A stretch of 64,000 nt of DNA from Bigelowiella natans CCMP2755 (taxonomy: Eukaryota; Protista; Cercozoa): contig ADNK01002959.1 of the NCBI GenBank assembly GCA_000320545.1, positions 62,001 through 126,000 of the forward strand. Direction: 5' to 3'. Positions 1-64,000 of the stretch are shown piece by piece (position 1 is the first letter of the stretch; each line of letters begins with the position of its first letter). Both the position numbers and the translations under genes were made by a program. The notes beneath the pieces are model-generated. The model saw nothing but the letters and a program-made list of their open reading frames with translations. It was not told where the DNA came from and did no database searches.

Positions 1-1206
1 TGGTGGTGGTGATGATTGTGGTAGTGATAGCACTTTTTCTGGGTCTCTTCAAAGCATTGTCCATCAACTACTTGGTAAGGTGAAGCATCAGCAGCAGCAG
101 CACAAGGTAGTAGTAGGAGGTGGAGACGATGTTAATGAACCCCCGTTTGCCTTGGTTGAAATCAAATATGGTAATTCTGCCAAGAGTAGTCTAAGCCGTC
201 CTTCTGGTTCTACTACTACCACTGCTACTCGAAGATATAGAGTAAAATTATTCGTGAAAGCAAGAATTATAGCCACCAACCTGAAGGAAGATGATGATGA
301 TGATAATGATCCATTTTGGTCAAAACCATCGTTAATATCATCGATTGTGGAGTCTGTAAGGTTTGTTGTTAATAACACAGCTCATTATCATCATCGTCAT
401 CATCATCATCATCATCATCATAATCTAGGTCATTGATTAATAGCAGATATCCCGCCACCACCGAGGTTTGATATTGATCCTCTCCCTCATAATACAATCA
501 TTAGTTTTTCAAAGCATGACTCGTTTCTGGGGGCATCTTCGTGGGAGAGCAAGAAGTTGGATCAGAATGGATCGATCCAAGTTGCCTATCGGGGTACTAC
601 TAGTAGCTTTCGATGATGATGATGATTATGATGATGATGATGATGCTGTCGCGTCTTTCTTCCTCTCGATGAGTACTGGAACTATTGCCAGGCAGATGGA
701 GGTGTTGAAGTACTATGACCAGATGTAAATTATTTGTGAATCTTCGATAGTTTTCCTCAAGTTGTTGTTTTGATTTCAGCTTCTTCTTCTTCTTCTTCTT
801 CTTCTTCTTCTTTTCAGAAAGCTTCCCCCTTGTTCCGTCATCACAACTCCGTTTCTTATCATTCTGCTGACGTGATTGTTTTTGTTTAGGATGGGGTGGA
901 TTTCTTACGGAGATCAAAATACAATTCGCACTTCAAAACAAGAAAAACACGGTGGTAGGAAAAGATAAAGCTGAGTCATCCCCTGTGAGAACATTGGTTC
1001 TACCACATTACATCATACTGCATGATAATGGAGAGACATCGGAAAATACGATAACTACCCTCGTAAGATTCATCCCCACAGCTGCAAGCACTCGCGAAAA
1101 AGACAGCATCGAGGCTCTTTTGCAGGAACATAAACAAATGGAGGTCAAACAAAGAAGGACAAAGAAAACAAAAAAATGTAAAAGCCGTAGATCAATGCGA
1201 TTATAG
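1..1206 (+). CDS. 3' part of an intron-containing YEATS-domain protein (5' end outside window)
   Basis: Exon fragments RYRVKLFVKAR...SLISSIVESVRF (80-436 frame) and, after tttag at ~889, GWGGFLTEIKIQF...LPHYIILHDNG. These resemble the YEATS GWGxF and HxLxL motifs. Frame ends in a basic tail, stop at 1206. Confidence 0.6.
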
Positions 1207-1395
1207 CATAATAGAAGCGAAGATGCGTCGAGATCTTAGGTTGTTCTCTAGCACGCTGCTATTATGCACTGTCAATAATTTCAACGCATGATGCATATTG
1301 ATTGCGTGCTTGCATCCGATCCATGTACGTGTGCATATGTGTATGTTATCGTCAGTGTCACATCATATTGCATCGACGTAGACACTGACACATCT

Positions 1396-1455
1396 ATGAG
1401 ACGGGTGTAATGAACAAATTAAATTTCAAATGGTCATGCAAATCTAATATAGCTA
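1396..1455 (-). repeat. LINE 3'-end fragment
   Basis: atgagacgggtgtaatgaac...aaatggtcat matches reverse complement of ~54655-54697. Confidence 0.75.
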
Positions 1456-2003
1456 TCTAGCTATGCATGTCAGCATATTTATGCATCTGATCGCTACTCC
1501 AGTCGGATGCTAGGATGCCTGCATATGTATATGCACAGATCTAGAGATGTACAACATTTGTGCGCGTGCATGCGATGAACGCCCTGCCACGCAGTACATA
1601 GTACAATCGAAAGTCGTCATCTATGTGCGAATCAAATATCATCCGACAAAATGTAGCTATAACAATCTACAGCGCTTATGTTGTATCATCATGGAACATA
1701 CATCATTGTGTTGCATGCACGACTGTTTCTGAAGCTTGCATTAACATCTCCATTGTTCATTGTGTGTGTGTGTTCTTGTGTGTTGTGAAGCACATGTTCC
1801 AAAAAGAAGAAGAGCTAGAGACATCTAGATAGAATTATGGGCTAGCAGCTGCGCGTGCGCTACCTCGATGTGACAATGAGTTTTCATGACAATATATGAG
1901 TTTTCAGCAATACATCCAGACATCTAGCTGACGAGTCACAGCGCATACAGCAGCTACATCCGCAATATCACAACATGTGACCTATCATAAGTACTTCCTA
2001 CAC

Positions 2004-2471
2004 TCAGCACTTCAAAGATCTTGGTGTATCCGTGGCAGTAATCTTTTTGTTATCTTTCTTACCACACGCCTTTTTGATTATATACTTATCAACAAACCTA
2101 ATGACGATGAACATTTCTCAACCCAAGTCATAATGCATTATTTAAGATTAGAGACGGAGCTTATTATACTTACAATGTCCCGAAGAGATACACATATAGG
2201 GAGTACATCGCAGCAGTCAAAAACCTAAGATCACCATTTATCATAATAGTATCTGTTAAACGAGAAGCACATTGAATGTCTTTCCTCTTGTATGTATTAC
2301 CAGAGAATAAGCATCTCTCATGTTATTTCTATTCTTTATGAGAAACCGACTTTGACTGAGTTGTTGGCGACTAACTGCATTTCTTCTTCTTCTTCTTCTT
2401 CTTCTTCTTCTTCTTCTTCTTCTTCTCATTCTTATTCATTCTTCTCCTTTTCCTTTGTTAAAATTACAATA

Positions 2472-2506
<35 letters not shown>

Positions 2507-2787
2507 ATTCGTTCAGTACTATGTATACCAGTAGATGTCTTTGATGCTGCATTTATCCCGGATAGAAAAGAAATATAGCGGCACAATCACGCCAGCCTGC
2601 AAAGTTTTTTGAGATGTATGTTTACGTGCGCCGTGTGTATATTTATTAATACATGAGGTTATGCACACAGGCATACACACTCTCAACTATATATATATAT
2701 ATATATATATAAATATACATTATATATACACACAGTTTTATGATACACAATTTTGCTTTTTGATTTACATACCTGATATCATTCATA

Positions 2788-2836
<49 letters not shown>

Positions 2837-4279
2837 TCGCCGTTGGCAAAGAAAAGGTGTTATTTCGAGTGAGATTTAGTGATAGGTATAGTAACCAGCA
2901 TTTGAATATTCTGCAACGAGGTCACAACAATCGCTAAGTGGTACGTTGAAATGGAAATTAGGAGAGTAGTAAGCACAAATGCCGAGAAGATGGATGATGA
3001 TAATAGACGGTACTTCAACCTCCCATCAATACGACTACTAACATACCCTACCAATACTAATACCATCATTTCCTCTCATCATTATAATGGAGAAGTTTTA
3101 TCATAGTTTTGTTTTGCTACTCTCTTCTCACAGGTAGCGGCTAGCCTTTTCTAAACCACCTGACCGCTTATGGTTGGATGTTTCAAATCGAGAATATGTA
3201 TTCATTTATTTTCTTTTATGTATTTGGTTTATAGCGACAACAACCTGTGCTGCTTGGTTTCAACTTCATAGCAGCGAAGAAGTACCAACAGTACCTGAGG
3301 AGGAGGAGGAGGATAATTGACATGCAGGAAGGAGACAAGAGATCAACGACAACATTCTATTTAGTTTTTATCGGGAAGAATTACATCTTCTTTGTGGTTA
3401 TCATCACCATCATCATGATCATGATGATCATCATCATCATCATCATCATCGTTGTCGCATAATCATGGATGCTCTACGCTGCATGGTACGGTTCGCTACT
3501 GCTACTACAACTGCTGGTGGTGGTGGTATGAATGTCCCTTGTATGCATACACTCACATTATCGTGTGGACGAATGCATTGACCGTAGCAAAAATCTGAAT
3601 ATAATCGATGATGATGATGATGATGATGATGATGACTAATGAGCACCGATGGAGAACAAAAGCAAGAGAAGGAGGAGGAGGAGGAGGAGGAGGAGGAGGA
3701 GGAGGGGTAGTAGCAGAGGAAATCCAAGAAAAATAAAGAAAAAGAGAAAGAAAAATAGAAATCGATTTGGGTTAAGTAGCTGCTATAGTTTTAATGATGA
3801 AAAGAGGTATTATTACGATTCCTGGAGAAGCAAAGAGGACAAGACACAACCAAGAGTACCACATAGTCAATTGGTGGTGGATCCAGTGAAGTCTGCTCAC
3901 TGGCTTTTTGCAAAGAACAATGAAGATAGTATCGATGAACCTGATTGAATTGTCAACTCATTTTCTCGAGAATCACCTCTTTATACTAATTGCACATATA
4001 CATCATCCTTCATTACTACTCTTTTGAACGAATGTTATGATGGAAGATAGTGTAGGATGATGGAAGTAGTAGGATATTAAAATGCTCACCACCACCACCA
4101 CCATCATGATCATCATCATCCTTCTCATTATTAATATTAATACTGCTGTGATGATCTGTTGTTATTATTATGATTGTAATCGTCTCACTCCATTGGCTTT
4201 GAGTAGCAAAAGAACTCGACCCAAGCTAGCCTACCACGTGTGCCGTCTTTCGAAATCACATCTGAAGTATGTCATCAAC

Positions 4280-9717: not shown

Positions 9718-10288
9718 AGAATGCACCTGTGTGGCTGGTCGTTTGAATTGCTCAGAAGATGCATAAAAGTGCAAGATATCTAGATATGTTAGCTACTAAA
9801 GCGGTGATAGCATGCTGCAATCTTTCTGTCTGTAAGCTACTAGTGAGCGAGTTCTTTACTCTCACTCTCAATGGTTCTTTGTGTTTTGCAACCGAAGAGT
9901 CAGATACTTTGTTATATGATGTGGTCGCGATGCTCATCTAGTCATGTCGATTGCGCGCATTACAATAACGTGCACGGCTAGATGAGCAACACATCAAGGC
10001 ATAACTAAAGAAGAAATGATGTAAAATCCATGTAGATACACTTGGCAGGCAGTCATGCATGAATGAAGCGCAAACACACGCTAGTACGTTAGACGTGCAT
10101 GTGTTTTGACCAGAGCTAGAGAGGACGTACACATTTGGACAACTGACACGTCTATTTAGCTAGATGTGCGCGTTAATGCACACAATGCAAGGAATCTGCT
10201 ATGTGTGTGATCTAATGATGCGTAGCTGATTTTAGCATGTGCCTAGGACTCACATAAAGTCCATACATGCGCATGCATGTACTATTGC

Positions 10289-10386
10289 ATGAGACAGATG
10301 TAATCATAATGTGTTAATGTGTTGTGATTAAATTATTACAATTGTCATCGTAATGGAGCTATATATGCAAAGCAGCGGCTGTAGCT
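10289..10386 (-). repeat. LINE 3'-end fragment
   Basis: atgagacagatgtaat...caattgtcatcgtaatggagct...gcaaagcagcggctgtagc. Confidence 0.75.
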
Positions 10387-10944
10387 AGATAGCGGTTATC
10401 AAGTTATGTTGCATTGCATCCATGTTGGTCATGCGCATGCACAGAGCATGATAGACATGCAATATGATCATATATATTATGAGCTTTGGCTGAGCAACAA
10501 ACAATGTTGCGATGATGACACTCGCAACAATGCGTCGTATCACTTGAAGATATCTAGAAGGTAGCATGCAAAATAAAGTTTTGAGCTGCTCCATAACTCA
10601 CGCACAACACTAGAACTAGAGAACACTCGACGTGTGTCCGCAGCTCATACAAGTTCATGGGTACCAGCACAGCGTGTTTACATATATAAGGCCTAGCTTG
10701 TCGAACAGTCATTACAGCCATGCAGTGGCCAATGCATCTCGCTGGATCTGTGCGTACAACGACATGAGCAGCACACAGCTGTACGTGCCATCCAGACGTG
10801 TTCACATATGCATAGGTAATGCGTGTGATAATGCAATCGTATATGTGCCAAAATTATACAGATTACTGTGTTGGGGCATTCATGTTACATTAGCAGCACA
10901 CAAAGCGAAGCATTGACAAGTACTTCGTCACCGTCCTCTTATCA

Positions 10945-21196
<10,252 letters not shown>

Positions 21197-21869
21197 CCTT
21201 GTAGCGGAGCTTCGCTGCTACTGATCTACGTAGCGTTTCCCCTCCTTCTTCCCCTATCTTCTCCTCCTCGTCGTCTCATAGATCTAGCTGACATCGGAAG
21301 TACATGAAGGGCTTCCTCGATCTAAGACCTTGCTCATGTGGATTTCATGCAAGCGTCCTCAATTTGTCACTTGCGACAATCGTAATTTGGATTTATTATC
21401 CTTAATCATACTATCTTGTCGCAACTGACTCTGCTTCCTACATTTTTTTTCATGATCGTTGGGATCGCCCACACAACCGTTAATTGAACATATAAACGAT
21501 GATGATTGCATGAGGATGGCTGGCAAATAATATCAGAAATTGTATCGATGTCATCATAAATGATATCTGCGATACCTTGTAGTAACAAATAAATAACATG
21601 TGTTCGGTTTTTTCGTCATTGGTAACAAGATTTATTACGTAGTGCGATGCATCAATTTTGGACCAGCCCGGGTAATTGCGGCTCAGAAGCCATTCCCCGG
21701 ATAGTGCGCGCGAAATCCTTCTATGTTGTTTTGACATATATTTTGGGACTACGACTTGGTTTACTCCTTCAATCTAATCTAAAAACGCAAGGAGATCAAT
21801 TGCAATAGGTCGTATCCCCATTCCTTCTGTTGCTCTTTCCTCTGGGAAAGAAGTGTCCCCTCCCTTCCA

Positions 21870-24674
21870 ATGAGTAAACCTGTCGATAAAGAGACAGAGA
21901 AGGTGTTGCAGGCAGTTAAAGCTCTATTTTCAGAAAGCACAACAAACGAAGTTCGCAACGAGGCAAATAAATGGTTGCTTGGATTTAAGAAGACACGTCA
22001 AGCTTGGAGAGTGGCCGATGCCATATTGTCGAGGCCGGGACTTTCAAGAGATGCTTACTATTTTGCAGCTTATACACTTCGCCGCAAAATTCAATATGAT
22101 TTTGGGGACCTCTCAAATATGGAAAATAGGATTTCCCTTCGAAATAGTCTATTCCAACACGCACTACGACATTCTGCAGATAAAATGATCCGAATGCAAC
22201 TGGCTTTAGCAGTCTCCGTCTTGGCAATCCACATGGTAGGGGATCAATGGCCAACTGCACTTAAGGATATAGTAAATCATTTTAATAGAAAGGAGACAGC
22301 CATTTTATTGCTAGACATTCTTACTGTTCTGCCTGAAGAGTGGGACAACCCAAAGCTCTCAACTCCCAAGGCAATGAGACGCAAAGCGGAGAGAATGTTT
22401 GTGGCTCACACAGAAAACGTCCTCAAGATATTAAGAACGTATATGCATACCGCTGGGAACAAGGCAGATCTCCAGATAATCGTCTTCAAATGCTTTCTAA
22501 GTTGGGTGCGATATGGTGACATTTCGCCAGAGGCACTGGTGAATGACCCGTTATTCAAATTTGTGTTTGTTGCAGTGAAGAAAGATCCGTTATTCGAAAT
22601 ATCGTTGGAAGTCCTTGCAGAACTTGTAGTGCATACGGATGATATTAAGAAATACCAATCAGCTGTCGAAGTAATCGTCCCTAATGCTCTACAATTAAGA
22701 GGAAGGTACGATATGGCCCTAAATCAAGATGACTCTGAGGCGTGCAAAGGTCTTGCAAGACTTTTCAGTGAAATGGGCGAAAGATATTTAGGCTTTGTTA
22801 TGCATCCATCAAAGCAATCTGAAGCGCTGTTGAAAATGCTCCTGAAATGTACTGAGCACCCAGACAAAAGAGTAGCATCGATAACTTTTAATTTTTGGTA
22901 CAATCTCTCACGTGAAGTGAACGAAAAAAGGTATGAAAAGGTGCGCCCTTTGTTTGAGCAGGTTTTTGGACTACTAGTCAAGCCCTTGAAGGGAGTGATG
23001 GCGTATCCCCGAACTGTGCAGCAATTCAGTGATGACAAGCAGATAGGAGATTTCAAAAGATACCGTTATCTTGCTGCTGATGTTCTGGTTGACACCGTAG
23101 GAGTAATAGGAATTAAGAAAGTCCTGGGAGCTCTGCTAGACCTCATCAAATTAGAATGGAATGACTACCAAAAGGACAAATCACGATGGCACGGAGTAGA
23201 AGCATGCCTTTATTGTTTTCGGTCTGTTGCTCGGAAAGTGCGGCCAGAAGAAAATGAAATCCTTCCTCAGATCATGGAATTCTTGCCGAAAGTAGCGGCA
23301 AATTCCGCGTTGAGATACACTGCTACTTTAATTGTGGGAAGATTTAATGTCTGGATAAATAACCATCCCAAATTTATCCAGCCATTGATGAAATTCGTTG
23401 TGGAAGGCTTGAAGAATGAAGTTCCATTGGTTGTTTCGTCAGCTGCTTTTGCTTTCAACTATGTCTGTCTAGGATGCGCAGAACATCTAGCGAGAAATCT
23501 GATCAAGCCCCTCTTCCAGGTGTATCTTAACTCAGGTGGATTGAGAATTCAAGAAAGGAAAGAAATAGTTGAAGGACTCACAAGCGTGGTGTCGAAGTTG
23601 TCAATAGAAAATAAGCAATTTCTCCAGGGACTTACTGAAATAATCACACCATTAGCGAAGGTCCTGCAGGCTGCAACTGAATCGAAGGAAATACATAGTG
23701 ATGACAACAAGGCTAAAGTAAGCAATGCTCTCGATCTCATTGCTCAGGCTTTTTTGCAGCTTCCAGAAGCAGGTGCCAAGCAAGTAGCAGAACTTTTGAT
23801 GAAGTTGCATCCTATATTAGACAAGACAATGGACAAGTTTCTCAAGGATGATCAAATAATGGAAAGGGTATGTCGCTGCTGGAAATATGGCATTCGTGCA
23901 TCAAAGCTTTATTTTAAGCCGATGATAGTCCCTTTGCTGACCAAATTATCGCAACTATTCCCCAAGTATCCGCACTCTTCTTTTCTGTACATTGTATGCG
24001 TTTGTATCAACGAATTCGGCACTAAACCTGACTATCAAATCCTAATGGCTCATGCATACACCACATTTTCTAAACATGGAATGTCAAAGCTAACGTCGCC
24101 AACCGCTTACCAAAATCATCCTGACGTCGTCGGAGACTATTTTGATATGCAGAAGCGATATCTTCATCATTGCCCGCACATCGTCTTCAGTTCGGATCTT
24201 ATTGTCCACGTATTTCGATGTGCATTAGTCGGAATTGGAGTCGAGCATAAGGATGCTTGCTCCATGTTGATGAAGTTCTTCGCAACATTTGTAAAAATTG
24301 GACGCGAGTTACAAAGGAACCCATCTGCGAGGATACCGAATAGAGAGAAAGCCATTAACATGCACAAAGGTATAATGTCGGAACACGGACAGTCGTTGAC
24401 GAATGGTGTAATACAGGGTGTGGCTTTCCGGTTACCATACTCTCGAATTCCCTTTTGCGTAGAAGTTATAGAAGCCTTGATACATTGCGGTGGCCCTGCC
24501 GAAAAGTGGTTCGTTGAGGCCTTGAAGAAAATTCCAGACACAGAATCGCCAATGACAAAGCGACAGTTTCTTATATGTCTTTTCCAGCCTCAAGAGGCCA
24601 GAAATCAACGGACAAGGTCAACGAAGGAGATAATTAAAGAATATGCAAATGCTGTGCGGTCGAAAATTCGTTAG
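21870..24674 (+). CDS. TNPO3: Transportin-3/transportin-SR (importin-13/Mtr10 family), intronless, 934 aa
   Basis: Importin-beta N-terminus (ANKWLLGF..AWRVAD..YFAAYTLRRKIQYDF), EVLAEL, TFNFWYNL, VCRCWKYGIR, HPDVVGDYF; helical HEAT-like character throughout. Confidence 0.88.
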   Translation: MSKPVDKETEKVLQAVKALFSESTTNEVRNEANKWLLGFKKTRQAWRVADAILSRPGLSRDAYYFAAYTLRRKIQYDFGDLSNMENRISLRNSLFQHALRHSADKMIRMQLALAVSVLAIHMVGDQWPTALKDIVNHFNRKETAILLLDILTVLPEEWDNPKLSTPKAMRRKAERMFVAHTENVLKILRTYMHTAGNKADLQIIVFKCFLSWVRYGDISPEALVNDPLFKFVFVAVKKDPLFEISLEVLAELVVHTDDIKKYQSAVEVIVPNALQLRGRYDMALNQDDSEACKGLARLFSEMGERYLGFVMHPSKQSEALLKMLLKCTEHPDKRVASITFNFWYNLSREVNEKRYEKVRPLFEQVFGLLVKPLKGVMAYPRTVQQFSDDKQIGDFKRYRYLAADVLVDTVGVIGIKKVLGALLDLIKLEWNDYQKDKSRWHGVEACLYCFRSVARKVRPEENEILPQIMEFLPKVAANSALRYTATLIVGRFNVWINNHPKFIQPLMKFVVEGLKNEVPLVVSSAAFAFNYVCLGCAEHLARNLIKPLFQVYLNSGGLRIQERKEIVEGLTSVVSKLSIENKQFLQGLTEIITPLAKVLQAATESKEIHSDDNKAKVSNALDLIAQAFLQLPEAGAKQVAELLMKLHPILDKTMDKFLKDDQIMERVCRCWKYGIRASKLYFKPMIVPLLTKLSQLFPKYPHSSFLYIVCVCINEFGTKPDYQILMAHAYTTFSKHGMSKLTSPTAYQNHPDVVGDYFDMQKRYLHHCPHIVFSSDLIVHVFRCALVGIGVEHKDACSMLMKFFATFVKIGRELQRNPSARIPNREKAINMHKGIMSEHGQSLTNGVIQGVAFRLPYSRIPFCVEVIEALIHCGGPAEKWFVEALKKIPDTESPMTKRQFLICLFQPQEARNQRTRSTKEIIKEYANAVRSKIR

Positions 24675-25150
24675 TTCTTCTCTTACATGCAATGCAAATC
24701 TAGAAATTCATCTGGTCATAGGAAACTAAATATCATTTGTGCATGTTATTGAGGGCGCACAATCACCCCTATTCACGAAGTCAACTACATTCATTACGAC
24801 TGATGAGAAACATATAGCTCTTTTATTTCGTCTATCACCATTCATGCGGCTAATAGCTACCCATGATTATCCAGCCTTGCTAGCTTGCACTTTGCATGCA
24901 GCGACATGTGAGCGTCTGATGCGTGCAGTGCATGATTCCATGATAACGCATCGATCACGCATGATGGCGCTGCGCATGTCCTCTTTAGAACTAGAAACTA
25001 TGGCACTACATGTTGCGCGTGCGATCGAGACGAAATTCTACAATGAGAAATTAGCTAGTCCACAGCGCTTAGGCAGGTGCTCGGAATCATTGTAGACTCT
25101 AGGACTAGCAGATTGACATCTAGACATTGTGACAACACACCTAGACAGCA

Positions 25151-25239
25151 AGACAGATGTAATCAATTAAATTGAATTTGTTCAATCTAGCAATGGTCAT
25201 CCTCATGTAGCTGTGCAATGCAGCGGCTACAGTGCTAAT
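25151..25239 (-). repeat. LINE 3'-end fragment
   Basis: agacagatgtaat...caatggtcatcctcatgtagctgtgcaatgcagcggctacagtgctaat. Confidence 0.85.
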
Positions 25240-25711
25240 CTAGCTGATGTTGAATCCACACCTAGACAGCAACGATACACTGATCTAGTGATCTGAGCTT
25301 TGCGCACATTTGTTGATGAAGGCAATGTTTGATTCGCGTGTCAATGCGTATCACAAGTCATTTATCAAGATAGGCGCGATGGATTACCACTTGACTAGCT
25401 TGCATGTGACAATCTACTGGAGAGCTATCTAGCCATGCTTGTGCTTGCTCGCAGTTGCATTGGCTTGCGTTTACACGTTTCACATGGTGTTGTCGAGGGC
25501 TTATGTAGCTAGCACGCATGAGAGCATCATGTCCTGTAACGTGGTGAGCTGCAATCAAATTAAATGGTTAATAAAAACTACAAAGAGATTTGCACTGCGG
25601 CTGCACTTACTTCTACGTGCTTATTCAAACACATACTCAGATCATTTTCTTCATTCTCAACTACATGGTATTTCCCTCATTATTCACTTTCCACTGTATG
25701 TAGCCGTCAAT

Positions 25712-30721: not shown

Positions 30722-32433
30722 ATGGGCGCCAACAGGATCGTCCGCTTGCTGTGAGAGTGCGATGACAGTAGCAGGGAGAGACTGTTACTACTGCTGCTAC
30801 ATTTGATGACATGGATCCATATAATTGAGGGTCGTTTGGCGGTGGCATGTAGTTGTTGTTGTTGTTCTTGTTGTTGTAGAAAAGACTCGTACGATGAGTA
30901 TCAGGTAAGCCGTTGAACTGCTGAATTCGAAGACATCAGATATTTGGATGGGCTCGTCCAAGGAAGGCATTATTAATTTATAAGTTATCTCAACCTGGCA
31001 ACGTGCCTTTCCAATGTGCAGGGTAACAATCTCTCCCCTTCCCTCATTTGTTTACTGCTCCCGAAAAAACACAACGGCCAATGGGATGCCGGCAGGTGCG
31101 AGATGAGTATCACAAGAAGAGGAAGCCGGAAATCTCTGTTTGTAGAGGGAAATAATTCAGTACGACAACTTGGATACATTGTCGTCGTTTTGAAAATGGA
31201 TCCAATTCGGGATATGATAGCGATTTGGCCTAAAACTTGCCAAAGCATCGAAAACCGTCTTGCCATTTATTTACATGTATTTTTGTTTAAAACGGATACA
31301 ATTGGAGATGATTTCAAAAATATGGGGGATTTTGGATTGTACGACAAGCTTTCTATGCCGATCTGCGGACACAAAGCCCGCCAGGGAATGGCTGCCTTCC
31401 GTTAAGGTAGCGAGAGTAATGGAAAACTAAATTAGATCTAGTTGGGGAGTTGTAATTATGTGCATTATCAATTCGTACGAGTCGACAAGCATCATCTTAG
31501 GGGGGGTAACATCTGTTGAGAAATGGGACATTCGAACAACCATCCACCTTGATGAACATCGGGAGGGTTTAATTATTCTTCTCACGTGGAATTTATCCTT
31601 CCTTCCAGCACGCACCAAAGGTAGAGAATCATATAGATCCGTCAGCTTCACACAAGGCATGGACCCATACAGCTTTCAGAACAGAAAAGAGATCGAGCGT
31701 CGAGTTGACGAATTAGAGAAGGCTCTAAAGACTGATGATATTAAGGAGAAAGATCAGCAGATCCAGCTAGAAATGGACAAATTAAAAGAAAAAATGTCCA
31801 ACCTAACCAATTCCTCCTCTGAGTCGCGCCCGTCTACAGCGTAATTTTAATCATAAACTAATCCACGTTGCTATTTATGATGGTCCTGTTACTGTACGTA
31901 GAAGTCAATTGTTTACTACTACCAAATCATTCAGGAATCCAATTTCTAAAAAAGACGCCGAGATGATATCTTGGGTGAAGAGTATACGTACGGTGGGTTG
32001 AAAATACAATGATCACATGTCAATATGCAAATGATTCATAGTTTGTTTTCCACAGATATTAGAGAACAAGGTCGGGCACATGGCAAAGTGGATGAGGAAA
32101 TTCGATACCGATAGGAGTGGGAAAATAGACAAAGATGAGTTCAAAACCATTTTGAAAACATACAGGTTAGGAACAACAATTCAACGCTACCGTTTGCAAT
32201 ATAATTTCTCATTTGATAAATTTATCCATAGTATTGATGCTGACAAAGACCAGACCGAGCGGTTGTGGGGAATTTTCGATAAGAATGGTTCTGGGAGAGT
32301 GTCGGTGTCGGAAACTTGTTGAAGCAATTGATGGTTGTGATAAATTGCATGCTATAATACGACGGAAAAATAGTGCGTTATGGAGTTCCAGAAGATCAGC
32401 AAGAAACTGAACGCCCATAAAAGATCGGAATGA
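30722..32433 (+). CDS. EF-hand Ca-binding protein with coiled coil; N-terminal exons uncertain
   Basis: FDTDRSGKIDKDEF and FDKNGSGRVS..EF loops, upstream coiled coil (EIERRVDELEKALK), short introns. Confidence 0.7.
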
Positions 32434-32651
32434 GAAGGGACACAATTAGCCAAACGTAACGGTAGTGCTGCTGCCCAAGTGTACAATAATCTACACATTA
32501 TATTCCTGTACTGTCATGATTTACATCAATCAATGATGACTCGGACATTAGCACGTGTTATGCGACATGTTAGCAGGTAATGTGACATATATGTTTTAAT
32601 AAGCTGCTTGCTGGGAGGCATGAAACAAGCGCGCATGGCATTGCGTTGAAT

Positions 32652-32784
32652 GTGAGACGGATGAATGAAGTGGGTGATTAAATCTTTGCAATGGCATTGA
32701 ATGTATGAGATGGATGTAATGAATTGATTAAATGCGTTGAATGCATGAGACGGATGTAATGAATAAATGTTAATTTTTTCAATG
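32652..32784 (-). repeat. Three tandem LINE 3' termini
   Basis: tgagacggatgaatga / tgagatggatgtaatgaa / tgagacggatgtaatgaa...ttttttcaatg. Confidence 0.8.
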
Positions 32785-32943
32785 CACAGAGAGGCAGCTT
32801 CTCACTGTGTACAATGAGAAGCCCTCCTAGCCTTGTGTACCACCAGGCACTCATTGCTCGTGTGCGTTTGCATGCGTGTACTAAGACTGCTTCGCCATAT
32901 GGCAAAATGAGCATTAATTGCATGCACAATTTCACTGCACTTG

Positions 32944-33815
32944 TCATTTTGGGGCAAGAAACTTCTTTGCAATATGAGAAAGCAACCAAGCTTTATCGAG
33001 ATTCCGAGAGTTTATTTCTCGCTCTTTCTTACAATCGCTAGATTCTTCTCTGCTGGTACTTACGTGGGTGATGGGCGAAGCTTTGAATAGGTGTTGAGTT
33101 CCACGTTCGAGCTCAACGCTGCTACTAACCACGTTGACATGATCTTTTGTTGCATCAAATACTTTGTCTACTTTATTTCCACCATTTTTGTTGCGTATGT
33201 TTGCAACCGATTTAAAGCATTTTTTTTTTCCGTTAAAGTTGATCGTAAGCCGCATGCAGACTCCAGATTCAACCTGCCGTTCGACCTTTAAGGAGGAGAA
33301 GAACAAATTATTAAAGAAGATGCATTATAATATGAGTGTTGGAATATATTTTATCTTGTATTTACTGCTGTCTTCTTATTCTTCTTCTTTCATTTATCCC
33401 TTTATCTACCTCTTTTGTGTTGTTGATTAGAAGGACTTGACTCCTAAATAGTTTTTGTAAGCCCTTTTCCTTGTTCCGTATCCATGCATCACGTGCATCG
33501 AGATGGAAAGAAGGCTGGATGCGAACTTTCAACGGCTTTTCTTCTGGATGAGGATCAATCCCAATATCGTTGCTGTTGCCATCATCATCACCATAATCAT
33601 CATCATCATTATTATCGCCATCTTCCTTTTCATGATCGGATTGGTGTCCTATCCTGCTGTGTTGGCACAATGTTTTCCCGCTACTTCTGGGCTTATTCAC
33701 AGTAATGGTGGAAGAGGAAGCTATAGTAGTAGCGGTAGAAGGAGAAGAAGAAGAAGTAACGACGACATCATTTTTCTGTTGCAGTAGCTGCGATTTCCTC
33801 TTTTGGATATCCTTC

Positions 33816-52488: not shown

Positions 52489-52583
52489 AGCTATGAGATG
52501 ACTGTGATTTGTAGGAAACAAACAACACGGTGTTGTACACGCCGTTATCGACCTGTATCGTACCGTTAGATAAACATGACTAG

Positions 52584-52641
52584 ATGAGACAGATCTAATG
52601 AATTAATCAAACCTTTTCAATGCTCATCCTAATGTAGCTGT
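52584..52641 (-). repeat. LINE 3'-end fragment (second partial at ~52728-52746)
   Basis: atgagacagatctaatgaa...ttttcaatgctcatcctaatgtagctgt. Confidence 0.8.
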
Positions 52642-52759
52642 AGAGCTATGCGTATCGTTCAACATGTAAATGTGCTCGTTGCATTGTTTGCACGTCATTC
52701 GCTTGCTAGCTCTAGAGCATTATCATCTCCTAATGTAGCTGTGCAACAATATATGTGTA

Positions 52760-52822
<63 letters not shown>

Positions 52823-52866
52823 ATAATAAGTATCTTGGAAATAGACACAGGAATACCACAGCATAC

Positions 52867-52919
<53 letters not shown>

Positions 52920-52929
52920 GATGTATGTG

Positions 52930-53072
52930 TGAGACGGATGTGATGAAATGTTCAAATTTTTTCAATGGTCATACATATGTGTACACATATGCATGTACAT
53001 GTACATGCACATGTATGTGTATGAGATGATCCATGTCTTTCACGACCCCACAAGTGTTGCATGTGGCATCTG
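52930..53072 (-). repeat. Inverted, internally deleted fragments of a sister LINE copy
   Basis: 52930-52972 is the reverse complement of the 3' end (MTIEKI*); 53024-53072 is the reverse complement of the zinc-knuckle region ([16 protein letters not shown] vs DATCDACGILKDMDHL). Confidence 0.88.
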
Positions 53073-53116
53073 CCCATGTGTGCAGCGCACATGCATGCAT
53101 GTGCACACATGTGCAC

Positions 53117-54696
53117 ATCGACGACTGGCTCAGAGATCGCACCGCCAGATTCAGATTTGGCAATGCTCTCTCTGAACACATGAATCTCAAGAGCGGCGTC
53201 CCCGAAGGATCATCTCTCAGCTGTTTCCTGTTCACAACCCATTGCGATGTTTGCGAACAAATTGACAACACAGATTTCCAAACATGCTGTGACGACGTCA
53301 CCCCCTGCAAATTGTTTTCGCCAAACCGATGGGGGAAAATGCAAGATGACATCCAGGCCGACCTGAACCAAATGACGGACTGGTGCATGAAATGGCGGAT
53401 GCGATTCAATGGGGACAAGAGTGGGCACCTCGTCATTGACAAAAGAAACAAAGCCTGCCGACACCAAACCTCCTGGAACATCTCTCTGAATCTCCAAGGC
53501 AAAATGAAAAGAGTCGACAGCGGCAGATGTCTCGGACTGATCTTCGACAACAAACTGACCTTTGAAAAACATGCTCTTGCTTCTCACCTGAGATTGCAAA
53601 AGAAGCGAAGGTTTTTGTCAAGGTTGTGTTGTTCCAGACACCTTGTGCCGCTAAATGCCAGACTGAAATTTTGCAAATCATGGTTCCTTGCATCCAGCAG
53701 ACACGCAGCTCCAATGTGGAGATCACGAAGAAACATGCGAATGAAACAGATGGATTCCATGGAATCCCAAACCCTGAAACGTGCATTGGGATCACCTGGA
53801 TCCATCTCCAACGACGTTCCCCACGTCCTCACTGGCACGTTGCCACCCCGACATCAAACCAAAGTGCAATGTGCTGAATCATGGTTGCGCACTGATGCAT
53901 GGATCGACACAGGCAGCGGTCCTCAAATGCATGAGGGAACAAATGATTGCAGCAGTTGTGGCTTCATCATTGAAAATCGAAAAATGCCAGGTGGCACATC
54001 GTGGATTGATGTGTCCACAAACACGTGGAACAAGTGTCTTTGTTTCGTCGTCTCAAATCGATCACTGACGATTTGTTAGGTGACGAATTGCCCACAGTTT
54101 TGACGACAACAGAGGCGCTGAAAAAAGAATCAAAAAAACATCACAAGGTGATGAAATCCTGTGCTTTTGCCGAATTGCAGGAGGAATGGTCCAATGATTC
54201 ATTGCGAGCTGTGCATCTCAAGAATCTTGGATTCCTTCCGTCATCTTCGATCACCGGCATCAAACTGAAACTTCCAAGTGTCGCTACATCATGGATGCGC
54301 GCCATCTGTGGTGTCGGCAATCTTGGAAAATTCGTGTTCTCACGTGGACAATGCACAGAGACAGATGCCACGTGCGATGCATGTGGCATCCTGAAGGACA
54401 TGGATCATCTCCTGCAATGTCCAACACACAGTCGAGAACAAATCAGATTGCGCAATCAAATGAGCGCAATCATGAATCGCAACGACGACACGAACCGGCT
54501 GACAAATGCTGAAAAGGACTCCAGAACTGCTGCGCGCAGTGCGCGGCAACATCGGTCGCATGAGGACGCTTTCAAATGCATGAAGCACGTGGTGGCAGAA
54601 ACCAACAGATGCAACATTGGCGCTGCAGCCGCTGCATTGCACAGCCACATTGGGATGACCATTGAAAAAATTTGATTCTTCATTGCATCCGTCTCA
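53117..54696 (+). mobile_element. 5'-truncated, frameshifted non-LTR retrotransposon (LINE): RT C-terminal half plus CCHC-type zinc knuckle, TpA-hypermutated
   Basis: SGVPEGSSLSCFLF (GVPQG), TCCDDV (YADD), WCMKWRMRFNGDKS, RCLGLIFDNKLTF (KYLG), RHAAPMW (YAAPVW), CDACG..DMDHLLQCP. Frameshift near 54040-54079, stop 54673-54675, short 3' end catccgtctca. Confidence 0.93.
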
Positions 54697-55410
54697 TGCA
54701 TGCATGCATGGATGTTTCCTGTCTACAATTAGCATGATGGACTTTACTTCTCTCATGAACCGACCGACGCCGTAGCGTGCGTTCTACGTGGCGTTGCCTA
54801 CGCCTAGACGCTGTTAGCACGACCGCACAGCTGCGTTCAACCTTGCTAGCTTTGCGTGGGCAACGTCTATGTGCATGTATGTAGCTAGCTAGAACGTACC
54901 ACGTCGCCCTGTCGCCGGGCGCATTGAACAATTAAACGATAAAACGTAACTATGTAGGTAATAACGCTTGCGGCGCTGATCCCGATCTCATTGCGTACAT
55001 TGTCAGGATCGAATCCTGCGCATCGCATGCATGCTCTGTCCTACCCTACTCACATCGCAATTGACAATGTGTGAACTGTGAGCAGGACTAGCATCGCAAT
55101 CGACAATAATGTGTGAACTGTGAGCAGGACTAGAGGAAGGAGTACAAGCGGTCTCAAATCGATCAGTGTACAAGTTAAGCATGTCAGCATGACGCGGCTG
55201 CACGCTGCACAACTCCTACGTCATTCTGATGTGGCTTCTTCCTTACTGTAGCGACTGTTACTTCCTTTACATTTCAGGAGGCATATGGAGACCATCCTGG
55301 CATGATCCATTCCTCCCTCATTGTTGCAACTCAGTCAAAAATGCATAAATTAAAGCAGCCATTCTACAGCCATCATTAGGTGCTCACATTGGGATTTTCT
55401 GTAATACAAT

Positions 55411-56758
55411 TTATACGAGGTGCGCTCCAACTGGATAACTGGAGGCACTCAGGATACCACAAATGCCACATACTGTTATTTCGGAAGGACCTCCCTTGCA
55501 GCCGAAACCGTCTTGAGGCGAGCTGTCGGTCTGACAAGATGCCTCTGCCTCGCGGAAGAGCTTAATGTAACCCTGCTCACCCCATGTAGTGCCCCAGGAG
55601 TTGCGCACAAGGTAGTAGTCGTCGCCATTCTCTGTACCATAGCCAACAAGCTGCACTGCGTGGTCAATATCACTTCCGCACTTACCCTTCATCACACCAC
55701 CACCATAAAGCTGCCAGCCAATAGTCCCAGCATCGACACTAATAGCCACAGGGCCAATGGTAGCGATCGCTTCCATGAGTGCAGTGTAGTTGTTAGTGGG
55801 GAGGTCAACTTGACCGGTCACATTTGCAACAGCCTTGATCTTGGAGGTATCACAGGTTCCAGTGCTTCCTTGATAAGGATAATCCTCCTCAGTCGTAATA
55901 CCTGCTGATCCGATGTATTGGAAGGCGAGTGGCTGAGTAGAGCCTTGGCAACCGCCAGTGCCTCCACATTCCTCAGGATTTGGTGCGCAAGACACAAGCT
56001 GCTGCTCGGAAAGGGTCATCAGTTTTCCCGTGGCAATGGCCAAGTGGGACTCCATCGTCTCGGATGAGGAAAATGCCCAACAAGCTAGCAGAAAAAGTAG
56101 AACATGTTAACACAAATCGAAGTACGTAATATATCCATACAATTATCTTTACTACAACGTATGGTGCGCTAATCTACTGAATTCTTACATCCACATCCGC
56201 CCTGGTTCTTAACCGCGGTAACCACGCCCTTGTCCCTCCAGTCGACGCTGTCAGGCAGTGTAGCCAGAAACTCGTAATTCACAGGAGCAGCACGAGCAAC
56301 CTTGCTGTCTAAGCTCTGCAACTTAGGGTGGCTACGTTGATGGAACCCACGAGTGGAACGGCGAAACTCCTCGGGATGCAAATCAGTAAAGTCGTTAACC
56401 TATATTACAGTCAGAATCTTATCGTATCGCCTGAACGTGTATTATTCCTCATGATCTTCATGATGTACTTACGTGGAGGAAGTAAGAATGATCCTCTTTA
56501 TTGTGGCGGCGAATGATCTCCAAATGGCGTTCAAAGATGCCCTAAACAGATACGGCGGATTAGCACCTTTGAAACAAATTTCGCATTGTGGAGTAGAGGA
56601 ACCTTGCGGTAGCCCATCTGTGACTCTGGATATGATTTTTTGAAGTCCACAAGATACTCATCGAAAGAGTAGGGATGTCCATTGGCAAGATCCTTATGGG
56701 AGACCCTGGGGCGTGCCTCAGCTTGGAAGCAGGAGAGGAGGAAGACAAGCGCGAACAT
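55411..56758 (-). CDS. Cathepsin L-like papain (C1A) cysteine protease, 4 exons
   Basis: Signal peptide, I29 propeptide, LPDSVDWR, KNQGGCG|SCWAFS, SEQQLVSC, IDHAVQLVGYG, VRNSWGTTWGEQGY. Confidence 0.95.
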
Positions 56759-59218: not shown

Positions 59219-60193
59219 ATATATCTATTTTTCATGAGCCACTTGTTTGGAACTCATGCTTTCTCTGCCTTTTCAGAGCTGCTCATTTCGCGTGCAAAAA
59301 GTTCGTAAGAATACTGCAGAAGGTATTAGCAGGATCATTATTTTTATCATTCAATTTATCGAGGTCGTACCTTCAAAATATATCATCATACAGTGACTAT
59401 CATCCGTTTTAGCGATTTTGCTGTATCCAGAGGGCAGACAGAGAGGAACTCTGAATGTAGAGAATAATATATCAATTTCACAGGGATATATTATGCTGTT
59501 TTTAGGTTGGATATCCCCAAGTAAGATTCGCTCCTTCCCATGAAGAACCATTGATACGGAGCATAATGGCCAAATGCAAGGTTCGTAATAAATTAGGTGT
59601 TGATACTGTTTAGTGTTCCTTTTCTTGCTCATGATGATGATGGTGATGATGATGATGATGAAGATGATAGTGCTTCTATAACTTTCGTCATTCACGGGTA
59701 ATTCGATTACACGTAATAAAATGGTTTTCTTAGGTTGATTTTCCAGTTCGTCTAGAGGACTTAGCTACCACGCACAATGTGAGCATTGCAGTATTTCCTA
59801 CTAATAAAGACTCAACTTTAGACGTTCGTAACGATCTATTTGATCAGGAATTTGTCAGTTTCGAGCCAGAAATATTCCCTGGTCTGATATATCGAATGAC
59901 TGTTCCCAGGTAAGAAGTCGTCATGATGGAGAAGATAGCGGCGTTTTTAATTAAGTTTCGTTGTTTTAGGGTCACAATTTTCGTATTTGTAACCGGAACC
60001 GTGCTATTAGTCGGAGCCAAAACTCGATCTGAGGTGTCGAAAGTTACGTCCTCGCATGATGTTGATGGCGTACAATCAATATTTAGTGCGTCAAGTAAAT
60101 CTTCTTTTTTGTGTTCAGATTCATCGTGCTTTCGACCTACTTTACCCAGTTCTGCTTCAATTTAGGAAAGTTGTTGACGCTGAATTACAATAG
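57258..60193 (+). CDS. TBP: Divergent TATA-binding protein with long poly-Q-containing N-terminus
   Basis: KLDLVRIVTHVRGAEYNPK|RFRAVVIRLLKPKATGMI|YASGKLVCMGA, ACKKFVRILQK, FPVRLEDLA, FEPEIFPGLIYRM, FVTGTVLLVGAK, LYPVLLQFRK; stop 60191-60193. Confidence 0.9.
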
Positions 60194-61187
60194 ATCGAAT
60201 GTACAAACGACATGAGATTTATCTTAATTTAATGCTGCAGCGAGTGATTCGCAGGATAGCGTAGTCAATGTGGTATTTTCTAATAAACAGCTGGCTCAGT
60301 ACATCACACCAAAATTATGAGCATGTTCAGCACTATTGCACAACCTATACCAGTATAAGTATATCTTGCTTTGTCGCTAAGAATTTTTGGAGTTGTTATA
60401 ACTACACGATCGAAGCTATGCGCTTCCCGAAGTCCTCCACGCTAGGATGCATCGCATGTATAGTAACCAAGCTACATACGCATAGCTATGTACGCATATG
60501 GCATGCGCCTTGTATATGAGCTAGATGAGCTTTGATGCATGACGTGCAAGATGAAAACGCGTAAAGCTCTAGACTAGTAAAGCTGTGAAGAGCTTAGAAT
60601 TCAATGTCTTAAGCAAGCACCCGGTATCATTAGCTAGTTAGTGCATGCCGGCGCAGCCGTCCGTAGCCATGGCGTTGCGAGGTCGGAGCAAGCTAGTTAG
60701 CTATAGAGAGTGGTGCGTCGCAACAACTAGACAATGATGATCTAGACAACTGAGAGCCATGCCGCCTCTCGCTATAGGGACATATATGTCCATATACGTG
60801 TAGCCGTCTACGACATGTGTACATCACGTACTTCACATGTACCTATAGCTACACATGTGCCAGATGATAGCGCTCACATGTACAGGTACATGTGTAGTGG
60901 CTTGTTTGGTGCATGTGTGGATATGAACAGAGCATGTGTGTGTGCTTTTTAGTACATGTGGTGTGCATGGGTACATGTGTTCCTTACGCGTACACGTATA
61001 GGGACATATATGTCCATATATCGCCCATGCCCGTCGCATAGAATGCGGCGAACTTGCTGCTTAATTGCCAAAAGGCTTGCTAGCTTGGAGCAATTGAAAT
61101 AGATCATGCAAAATGCATACCATGCGGCTCTGCTAGGTTCTGTGCCCATGTCCGAGCATTGCACAATAGGCACACTGTATATACTGT

Positions 61188-61287
61188 GAAACAAACCAGT
61201 ACAATTTAAGCGCTGTAGCCGCAGCTTTGCACAGCTACATTAGGATGACAATTGAACAAATTTAACTTATTCGTTACATCCGTCTCA
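61188..61287 (+). repeat. LINE 3'-end fragment retaining TpA sites
   Basis: Encodes ETNQYNLSAVAAALHSYIRMTIEQI* and ends catccgtctca. Confidence 0.9.
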
Positions 61288-61371
61288 TATACTGTGCCTA
61301 TAGTCTGCTAATTGCTTGAAAGGAAAGAAGGCGCAATCAATTTAACGATGTTGCACATGTGCAGGAAAACT

Positions 61372-64000
61372 CTAAAGGTAATCTTCATCCTCAGACGCGA
61401 ACAGGTTGTCATCAACTTGCAAAATATTAGAATCTTCTTCCCTTGCTGGGGAAATTTCTGCGTCAGTGGAAGTGACGCTATTGTGGCGAGGTGACAAAGT
61501 CATACTGGATTCTGTGACATCTGGGGCACTTTTTCGCCAAAATATGAACGAAACTAAATCGTCAGAAATTGATTGCATCATTATGTCCTATTAAAACAAC
61601 AATTTCAATTTCTGCATTGCGGGTGGAGAGTTCTTATACCTCTTCTGATTTTTTCCCCTGCAAAAATTCCCAATCATTCTTGAGATCCATTTGACGTTTT
61701 TTCCTTGCACTTTGTATGAAGTCGTAAGTCTCGCATTTAGTGTTAATGTTCCTGAAATAATACCTTTAGTGAGGATAAGTCGAAACAGAGTAAAGAGAGA
61801 ACTACTCACAATGAGAATAGCTTTTTAATGTCGTCTGTCTTAAAGTTGCGCATCACGTCCTTTTCTTCGTCTACAACGGAGGACGAGATCTGGCGAAAAC
61901 ATGCTAAGTTTTGATTCCTGGTTTAGTATTGTTCCATAGACGATGATGACCTCTTGCTTCGATATCTGCCGTTGAAATATCTTCTCGTCTATGGTACCCA
62001 CAGCTAGTAGTCTATAGATCCAGGTTGTTTTCTTTTGACCATCACGCCAGACTCGTGCCATAGCTTGAAGATCGGTTGCTGGATTCCTATAATAAAAACC
62101 TCATTTACTTCAACAGTCGTATTAGTGTGGTAGTTATCAGATTGAGGAACCAATCAGGGTCGAATAGTATTAGCCTGCTAGCTCCGATCAGGTTCAATCC
62201 CACGCCACCAGCTTTCGCGGACAAGAGGAAGATGCGCTTGTCGCAATATTGAGAATTGAACTACAAATGATGTTCATCTAAGTTGACAGAAATTCGTTTT
62301 GCAGAAGGTTTACCTGGTCTACTAAGTCCATGCGAATCGAGCTTTTGGTCTGTCCATCAAGCCTGATTCTTCCATACCCTCTCGAAAAACAGAGGCGTTC
62401 GATGAGCTCGAGGGTTTCTTTGTAATTGCTCACAATAACAACTTTGTCCTTAGATCTTTTCATAATCTAATATGAAAACAAATTAACGAAATTTTTCTAG
62501 CATGAAAATTCTATTTATCACCTGTAGTAACAACTCGTCGAGGAAAAGAACCTAATATATCGTGAGGAAGGAACCATGACTCTACGATGATTCAAGTAAA
62601 TTATAGCTTAGAGTGTAACCTTCCCAGAAAGTTTTTTATCAACTTCGTCAGAGAGATCTGTCGGATATCTTTTGAAAGCATGTCTAATATGCGGGTCGCA
62701 GTTCTCCTTCTCAGAGCGAGCTTTGCAAAACTGGTAGATAAGCTGGGGATGGTTGCAGATTTTCTTCTGGTGATATATTTGTATCATTTTCTAAAACAAC
62801 TAGATAGTGCTGAATAAGCCGACCATGATTGTTATGCACTGCAGAGCAGAAGCAGATTTCCCTCCACGATTGAAAACATTGGAACGTAAGAATGCATTGT
62901 ATATATCTGACAATACAAAAGATAAATCATACAGAATAAAGCGAGCAATTTAGAGATACCGATTTGGAGCTCTGTCATGGGAATGAACACTACTTGCTCT
63001 ATCTTAGGTGGAAGAAATTTCTGAAGAATATCCGCGGTGCGCCGAAGCTTCAAAGATAAATATATTAATGAATAATTAATCAAAAAAGTTAGTTTGAAAG
63101 TATCGAGTGACCACAAATTTCGCCGTAATTTTTGTGAGAGCTATTGATCTTGCCTCGCCAGTTTTCTTATCTTCTTCGGAGCAAGTTGCATCTCTTGATC
63201 GGGATATTGGAATATGATACGAGTTCTGCACGCAATGACGTATACATACATACTGTTAGAGCAATATATCCCAATAATTCAATCGTGATGTTACCCGGAA
63301 TGTAGCTGGTGGTCCCAAAGACATGGGGTTGACAAAATCGCACATAGAGTAGAATTCCTGAATGACAAAGTTGAGATGAAGAAGCTCACTTTGAATAATT
63401 AAATTACCATGAGGTTATTTTGGACTGGAGTTCCAGAAAGGATCACCTAATCACAGCAGGAAAAATATAATTTCCTGCATTTCTACCAGATATGAAGCGA
63501 ACCTTCATTGCACATTGCAGAGATGCAAGTGATTGTATAGTCTTGTTGCCCTTGCTATTTTTAAGACGATGCCCTTCGTCACAAATTAGAACAGTCTTCT
63601 TGCCGCATAGTTTGGTGGTAATTTGATTTGCGTGGCGTCTGCAAGATTAATATTAGATGGTTTATTTTCACTTGAATTTTCGTGTTTGGGGGACCGGATC
63701 ATGTCATATCCGACTATGAGCACGTGTTTCGTAGGGGCCGAAACAAAATCCTGTAGAAGTTGAACATGATTTTCTCCACTCCCGATAACTACGGGCGAGA
63801 GTTTTGTGGTTCCAATCCATTTCTGTAAACATCAATAATATTATCCCACGTTGTTTGTATCCACAAGATTTTCGTTTGACTAGCCTTAAATTCATCTTTC
63901 CAATTTCCCACTAAGGTTGCCTAATTAAATGGACAGTGTCATACAAAGCCAAGAATTGCCTCTGCTACTTTACCGGACATATAATGATTGCTTTTTTACA
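61372..64000 (-). CDS. RAD54: RAD54/RAD54B-like SNF2 helicase (5' end outside window), short introns
   Basis: [68 protein letters not shown]|[20 protein letters not shown]. Confidence 0.93.

Follow-up and report, generated by a model that had tools for sequence, protein, structure and literature searches.

The window analysed here (64,000 nucleotides of Bigelowiella natans CCMP2755, contig ADNK01002959.1) contains a long LINE copy in which nearly every TA step has turned into TG or CA, with both strands affected, while short isolated fragments of the same 3' end have kept most of theirs. The long copy (53117..54697, plus strand) is 5'-truncated and encodes the reverse transcriptase (RT) from motif 3 onward and a C-terminal Cys/His region, followed by a short 3' UTR and a short (GCAT)n tail (54698..54710, plus strand). 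It carries a single frameshift near 54030 and aligns to residues 647-1153 of the full-length protein P0014, with tblastn identities of 75% (53117-53974) and 67% (54013-54672); the corresponding identities to P0032 over the two frames are 88% and 91%. Among named proteins, gene models of Bigelowiella natans (Bigna1) are the closest. The search for a target-site duplication returned only a 12-base low-complexity match (53090-53101 / 54695) and no duplication is claimed.

The TA-erased zone (53022..54723, also given to 54724) exceeds the LINE copy on both sides. Three TA are present in 53022-54724 (1703 bases) against 110.8 expected from composition, and TG and CA reach 1.93 and 1.50 times expectation, respectively; the next longest TA-free run in the window is 148 bases. 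The LINE zone has a TA ratio of 0.03, compared with 0.65 for the coding sequence of a transportin gene and 0.89 for the rest of the window, and not one Tyr codon is found in the 517 codons (316+201) of the long copy. The three surviving TA (53652, 54077 and 54285) stand in the contexts CTAA, TTAG and CTAC, with C before or G after in 3/3. The same context belongs to four of the 20 majority TA of the test stretch described below, all four of which were lost, although only three survivors enter this comparison.

The preliminary description of this DNA had aligned a scrap at 61188-61287 with 54598-54696 of the long copy and used it as a sister copy giving the direction of the mutations. The alignment, the peptides and the stops (TAA vs TGA) are as described there, with 79 of 100 columns identical, a blastn self-match of E 5e-17 and eight TA in the scrap against none in the long copy. 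All six changes it named were also recovered, namely TAC>TGC (61201/54611), GTA>GCA (61216/54626), TAC>CAC (61236/54646), att|agg>att|ggg (61242/54652), TAA>TGA (61264/54674) and ttacatcc>ttgcatcc (61276/54685), as were the pairs gtagct/gtggct, gctaca/gctgca and gctaat/gccaat of a copy at 25.2 kb, located in the alignment of 54603-54664 with 25252-25191. The two sequences differ at 21 positions in total, 15 of which had been omitted. The first change (the one giving ...ETNRC) is common to all seven other subfamily proteins that cover the site (P0004, P0007, P0027, P0029, P0030, P0032 and P0036) and is therefore inherited and not private to the long copy, and the stop is a weak marker since it is likewise TGA in the intact relative L002; four of the six changes are thus clean markers. 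The label of sister copy has to be given up: outside the TA columns the scrap matches the long copy at 70/83 positions and L002 at 72/83, so that it cannot be assigned to the subfamily of the long copy and is better regarded as an old relative.

The direction of change was assessed with the DNA runs X1 and X6, compared over 53117-53640. Of the 53 differences 40 are listed, and 39 of these were used (36 being majority differences), the minor second allele at 53188 having been dropped; depth shares come from assembled contigs, and the depth table is blind to sites where most copies have also lost TA. In the 441-base test stretch 53117-53557 all 20 majority TA are lost in the long copy, having become TG (10), CA (7), CG (1) or other steps (2). 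Among the differences listed, A>G or T>C changes affect 19 of the 40 bases in TA steps versus four of the 200 other A/T bases (Fisher P 1e-13), G>A or C>T changes affect seven of the 201 G/C sites, and other divergence amounts to at least 15/401. The TA-step changes comprise 11 A>G and 8 T>C, and both strands were therefore hit. Three of the four A>G/T>C changes outside TA sit at steps that, in our reading, a preceding C>T or G>A of the ordinary kind would have turned into TA. The majority TA at 53431-53432 is CG in the long copy, both bases having changed; this lies beyond a strictly sequential TA-only process and could be due either to a hit on both strands or to a second change of the ordinary kind.

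The proteins agree with the read depth that TA is ancestral and was lost in the long copy. Undoing TA loss accounts for 20 of the 42 amino acid differences between the long copy and P0032 and for 14 of the 31 to P0004, versus 0-3 for each of four control rules. The residue before the RT xDD motif is F in 80 and Y in 61 of 147 distant RTs, with C absent from the residues listed, and two further RT sites are Tyr in 131 and 102 of the 147. At these three conserved sites the long copy has Cys, His and Cys. Moreover, seven Tyr sites are changed in both P0028 and the long copy, and five of these differ, with His in one and Cys in the other, a difference that independent hits on either strand of a TAY codon are expected to give. 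A protein tree of the RT segment joined the long copy with P0028 (100); this grouping may be due to convergent TA hits and was not used for descent.

The opposite polarity, in which TG/CA would be ancestral and the short copies would have gained TA through RIP-like C>T changes at CpA, had been named in the preliminary description as the alternative to its reading; it was checked for and not found, and we consider it scarcely credible. TA, TG and CA do interconvert by single transitions, fungal RIP gives exactly CpA>TpA according to the accessible part of PMC4522978, and 7/93 TG/CA cells in the scraps read TA. However, such a scenario would have to explain why the long copy carries Cys/His where RTs conserve Tyr/Phe, and why the intact ORFs of two other subfamilies and of the outgroup P0041 have Tyr at these sites. 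Furthermore, His and Cys at one site in two copies arise most simply from a TAY codon, and 93-98% of the X1 depth reads TA at the four 3'-end sites listed.

A 3'-end profile search of the window (E up to 0.13) returned 12 pieces: the long copy itself, a piece adjoining it and ten more that measure 19-106 bases. The 61188 scrap (61188..61291, plus strand) keeps 6/7 consensus TA and is 16% diverged elsewhere. The other nine of the ten lie on the minus strand: the 25.2-kb copy (25151..25252; 3 TA kept, 1 CA, 3 other), 10286..10385 (3 TA kept, 1 CA, 1 TG, 2 other), 1390..1472 (4/4 kept), 1632..1687 (E 0.002; 3 kept, 2 other), three short tandem pieces in 32652..32786 (E 1e-6, 0.03 and 0.13; together 4 kept, 1 TG, 1 CA, 1 other) and two pieces in 52580..52746 (52580-52642 and 52728-52746; 5 kept, 1 TG, 1 other), 370-540 bases upstream of the long copy. 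Scored against a leave-one-out consensus, in which three of the ten fragments are weak (E 0.007-0.13) and subfamilies are mixed, the ten fragments keep 28/44 TA sites, with 6 TG/CA and 10 other, and show 60/470 (12.8%) non-TA changes. Equivalent scoring of the long copy gives 0/10 TA kept, 7 TG/CA and 3 other, with 1/77 (1.3%) non-TA changes. The earlier statement that short isolated fragments keep TA is thus borne out (P 8e-5), and a uniform clock fails to explain it because the fragments are the more diverged. A regain of TA by back mutation in the scraps was rejected, only 7/93 TG/CA cells having become TA.

The scraps may not be wholly untouched, given the TG/CA-rich debris that surrounds them. 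Patches of such debris (1001-2000, 10001-11000, 24851-25560, 32301-33000, 54725-55200 and 60601-61300) are poor in CC/GG (0.57/0.52) and rich in TG/CA (1.56/1.48) as well as in CATG, TGCA, CTAG and AGCT, with a TA ratio of 0.92. They are possibly old, partly hit DNA or the product of a second mutational process.

Loss of TA is not confined to the element. The 95-base 5' flank inside the zone (53022..53116) has 0 TA versus 5.3 expected (Poisson P 0.005). It contains an older inverted fragment of 60-70 bases belonging to another subfamily (~53023-53095, minus strand; P0014 match 14/15 residues), which has lost its TA too, and other copies read TA at 53056 and 53059 within it. Some 140 bases upstream of the long copy, a further 3'-end fragment (52925..52980, minus strand) keeps none of three consensus TA (1 TG, 1 CA, 1 other), a count of few sites in which the TG is possibly inherited. 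The pieces at 52580-52746, which mostly keep their TA, bound the spreading on the outside. Past the UTR the zone continues for 27 bases, a stretch too short for testing. The edges of the zone track the long copy, to within ~100 bases 5' of it and 27 bases 3' of it. Low-complexity matches at 53004-53010 were left out of the counts. The preliminary description had suggested targeting that depends on length or chromatin; loss in the 5' flank lends support to the part of this idea that concerns chromatin or a local domain, but length alone fails, as most of the depth from long copies keeps TA.

The family (P0014, P0026, L002 and the Bigna1 models) resembles an APE-type LINE in having endonuclease and RT in one ORF of ~1150 amino acids, copies truncated at the 5' end, and 3' ends that far outnumber the rest of the element; a literature search found no description of it. 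P0014 is a 1153-amino-acid endonuclease and RT ORF with PF14529 and PF00078, and both domains are also present in L002. Relative to the long copy's own depth, the summed contig depth in X1/X6 is ~20-60x in the body and ~2000x at the 3' end, which is not a copy number and is taken to mean no more than some tens of long copies together with a very large number of scraps. For 19 TA sites situated 1.1-1.5 kb before the 3' end, the median share of the depth from other copies that keeps TA is 0.81 (X1) and 0.83 (X6), ranging from 0.63 to 1.0 among the sites listed. The dominant contigs have depths of 2516-2934 (X1) and 292-358 (X6), compared with ~110-160 and 14-18 for the long copy, and correspond to roughly 16-27 near-identical young long copies. 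The saturation noted earlier for the long copy consequently holds for the copy at 53117-54697 but not as a rule for long copies, ~80% of whose depth keeps TA.

The four informative long copies of the subfamily form a graded series, from almost untouched to fully saturated, that parallels their other divergence. P0032 (434 amino acids) has 3/21 marker residues changed and 2/392 other differences, P0030 has 2/14 and 2/276, P0028 has 13/17 and 6/239, and the long copy has 20/415 other differences, its 22/22 markers being changed by construction. The shorter models carry too few markers to be informative (changed at 1/5 in P0027, 2/6 in P0029 and 0/4 in P0007), and P0031 and P0033 have a single marker or none. 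In the Bigna1 model P0029 the LINE stop is read through with Gln into the 3' UTR, as TAA>CAA would give. The gene models of the C subfamily, compared with L002, show 6/14, 4/17 and 9/21 TA-predicted changes with 9, 66 and 76 other differences, and are too diverged for a clean test.

A degenerate 3'-end motif had no loci in viral contigs and two in metagenome contigs, which is insufficient for a series of lengths; L001 carries short fragments only and L002 one long copy. L002 belongs to a sister subfamily, and its LINE ORF (219-3248, minus strand) is open over 1010 amino acids, 30 of them Tyr. Its synonymous TA : non-TA options stand at 12:99 in the 3' third versus 56:107 in the 5' two-thirds (P 7e-6), and a comparable fall is absent from a control, the third-position T:C ratio ahead of C or T (21:19 and 40:73). 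On this pattern an intact frame carries TA scars where they are affordable or where exposure is higher, as read from one contig that is possibly a population consensus. One 3' site reads Tyr, Cys and His across subfamilies, as if the founders themselves had been hit.

A process of this kind has been described for the same species. Mettrop et al. (bioRxiv 2026, 10.64898/2026.01.13.699255) report, in the accessible part of their preprint, de novo TpA>TpG/CpA mutations in B. natans mutation-accumulation lines, ongoing at about 1000 times the background rate, with direct evidence from two viral regions, 186 and 25 kb long, that are integrated in the genome, one of them single-copy and silent. RT and endonuclease-RT Pfam domains are enriched among their 324 TpA-poor coding sequences; transposons are suggested as possible targets and an ADAT2-like deaminase is offered as a hypothesis, and this part of the text names no enzyme with certainty and gives no targeting rule. 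The changes in the LINE zone are of the same type, being TpA-restricted changes to TpG or CpA on both strands (10 TG and 7 CA of 20), local to mobile or foreign DNA and sparing host genes (0.03 vs 0.65 and 0.89). They differ in that a 1.6-kb LINE copy has reached a TA ratio of 0.03, whereas the preprint, as far as accessible, gives 0.45 for its NCLDV region. The TpA process itself is already in the preprint; the LINE family is a new case of it, and the contrast in targeting, partly resolved here, is the added value. A copy-by-copy comparison of transposons, a length test, spreading into flanks and scars in living lineages were not found in the accessible preprint text, and a search of the open literature (subscription journals lying outside it) found no other analysis of the TpA process in transposons at the level of copies or of length.

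We hold that these observations are probably explained by a TpA mutator of the host that acts on chromosomal DNA in a patch seeded by the long copy, on both strands and until TA is exhausted, with the scraps escaping. Under this explanation an A-to-G mutator specific for TpA would act after insertion, and the long copy would likely seed a local patch reaching ~100 bases into the flank. Each copy would be mutated in place and piecemeal, the loss growing with time: the young near-identical long copies would be unhit as yet, the intermediate ones partly hit and the copy at 53117-54697, the only saturated one seen as DNA, fully. Scraps of 50-100 bases, being too small or too near active genes, would fail to build up a silent domain able to attract the mutator, silent chromatin being the presumed signal. 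By analogy with the proposal in the preprint, the chemistry could be deamination of adenine to inosine by an ADAT2-like enzyme. The resulting A>G and T>C changes would destroy Tyr codons, including that of the RT catalytic motif, leaving a dead copy without new stops.

The sparing of scraps can also be read as an effect of position alone, with a mutator that hits anything in silent chromatin, size being irrelevant and the persisting scraps sitting in or beside transcribed genes; we think this unlikely. The gene surroundings lend it some weight. The 61188 scrap lies ~85 bases from the end (61372) of a minus-strand, exon-like open frame that probably belongs to a helicase-like gene, although three of the seven frames scanned with Pfam (61843-62100, 61375-61587 and 63446-63646, all in the window) gave no match, so that the link between the gene beside the scrap and the Helicase_C exon at 62281-62466 (minus strand, Pfam) is a tentative one. 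TBP-like exons are located at 59734-60165 (plus strand, Pfam). The 25.2-kb scrap lies ~480 bases beyond the stop of a transportin-3/importin-13-like open frame of 963 codons (21783-24674, plus strand); this frame has no apparent intron in a window otherwise rich in microsatellites and introns. RNA run X24 (6% of the run, weak) covers the 3'-end bin on both strands (154 and 143) and gives a depth of 0-2 over 53107-54082, and the metatranscriptome X19, with 3/30 bins, is uninformative. In addition, the 60-base fragment adjoining the long copy is TA-free, and the hypermutable NCLDV region is described in the accessible preprint text as single-copy and silent (10.64898/2026.01.13.699255). But a gene ends close to the saturated copy as well, the stop (55411) of a papain-family peptidase (cathepsin) gene (55411-56106, minus strand) being only ~710 bases away. 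Zone edges lying within ~100 and 27 bases of the long copy look seeded by the element and not like a broad prior domain, and the scraps 370-540 bases upstream keep TA. The favoured explanation is in turn weakened by the window itself, where length, age and gene distance are confounded, with a scrap at ~85 and the long copy at ~710 bases from a gene.

Pairing of copies offers another way to spare scraps. Repeat-induced point mutation (RIP) of ascomycete fungi leaks into flanks, and it employs an RID-type cytosine methyltransferase with a timing tied to the sexual cycle. If copies above a threshold of length and identity recognised each other and were mutated, the short diverged scraps would fall below it, and the contrast seen here mirrors the RIP thresholds of ~400 bp and 80% identity (PMC4522978, accessible part). 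With RIP the LINE zone shares dinucleotide-specific transitions on both strands and the escape of short repeats (here fragments of 19-106 bases, confounded with position), and the TA scars of L002 are concentrated in its last kilobase at the 3' end, a part present in more copies. Yet RIP makes TA through C>T at CpA, the opposite of the TA loss seen here, and it depends on a duplicate, while the main target of the B. natans process, as presented in the accessible preprint text, is single-copy (10.64898/2026.01.13.699255). Moreover the best substrates for pairing, roughly 16-27 near-identical long copies, mostly keep TA, though they may simply be too young, and recognition by homology appears quite improbable to us. 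More improbable still is that its RNA or cDNA was edited once, in the manner of ADAR or APOBEC, as the element retrotransposed, so that the copy was inserted already TA-poor. Zone edges near the element ends would suit it, and a likeness to ADAR and TadA/ADAT enzymes exists in A>G changes with T/U preferred 5', a preference for U before the edited A being stated for ADAR in the preprint as far as accessible (10.64898/2026.01.13.699255). That source, however, also reports de novo chromosomal TpA changes in mutation-accumulation lines. ADAR and APOBEC3 act on one strand of an intermediate, whereas the changes in this case affect both strands and extend into the chromosomal flank. Clustered heavy editing by such enzymes kills a retroelement. 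The near-equal strands (11 A>G vs 8 T>C) and the older flanking DNA (95 bases), likewise TA-free, argue against such one-off editing, and the loss among copies is graded and partial; we regard the editing reading as largely refuted.

The sparing of scraps and of young long copies, the ~100-base spread and the scars of L002 are clues that favour a local, time-dependent domain, which we rank above one-off editing or pure pairing. A bolder form of the favoured reading is a tentative suggestion only: targeting may be RIP-like but independent of a duplicate, any foreign or mobile stretch above a few hundred bases seeding a domain that spreads ~100 bases into flanks and erases TA over time, with scraps below ~100 bases escaping for good and LINE lineages having survived partial hits as living elements with synonymous TA scars in the 3' kilobase. 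If this were true, a standing arms race would exist between a DNA adenine editor and retrotransposons. Its 3' scraps number roughly a thousand or more and its long copies, which differ in age by degrees, some tens, so the family is a natural experiment on targeting in which the effects of size, age, identity between copies and distance from genes could be told apart. The base-editing field, too, would take an interest in an enzyme from nature that turns A into G at TA in double-stranded DNA.

The 3'-end scraps occur in tandem clusters (32652-32786 and 52580-52981) and the reads show copies with a directly repeated 3' end (joint 54675 to 54597), which suggests repeated priming at the element's own tail.
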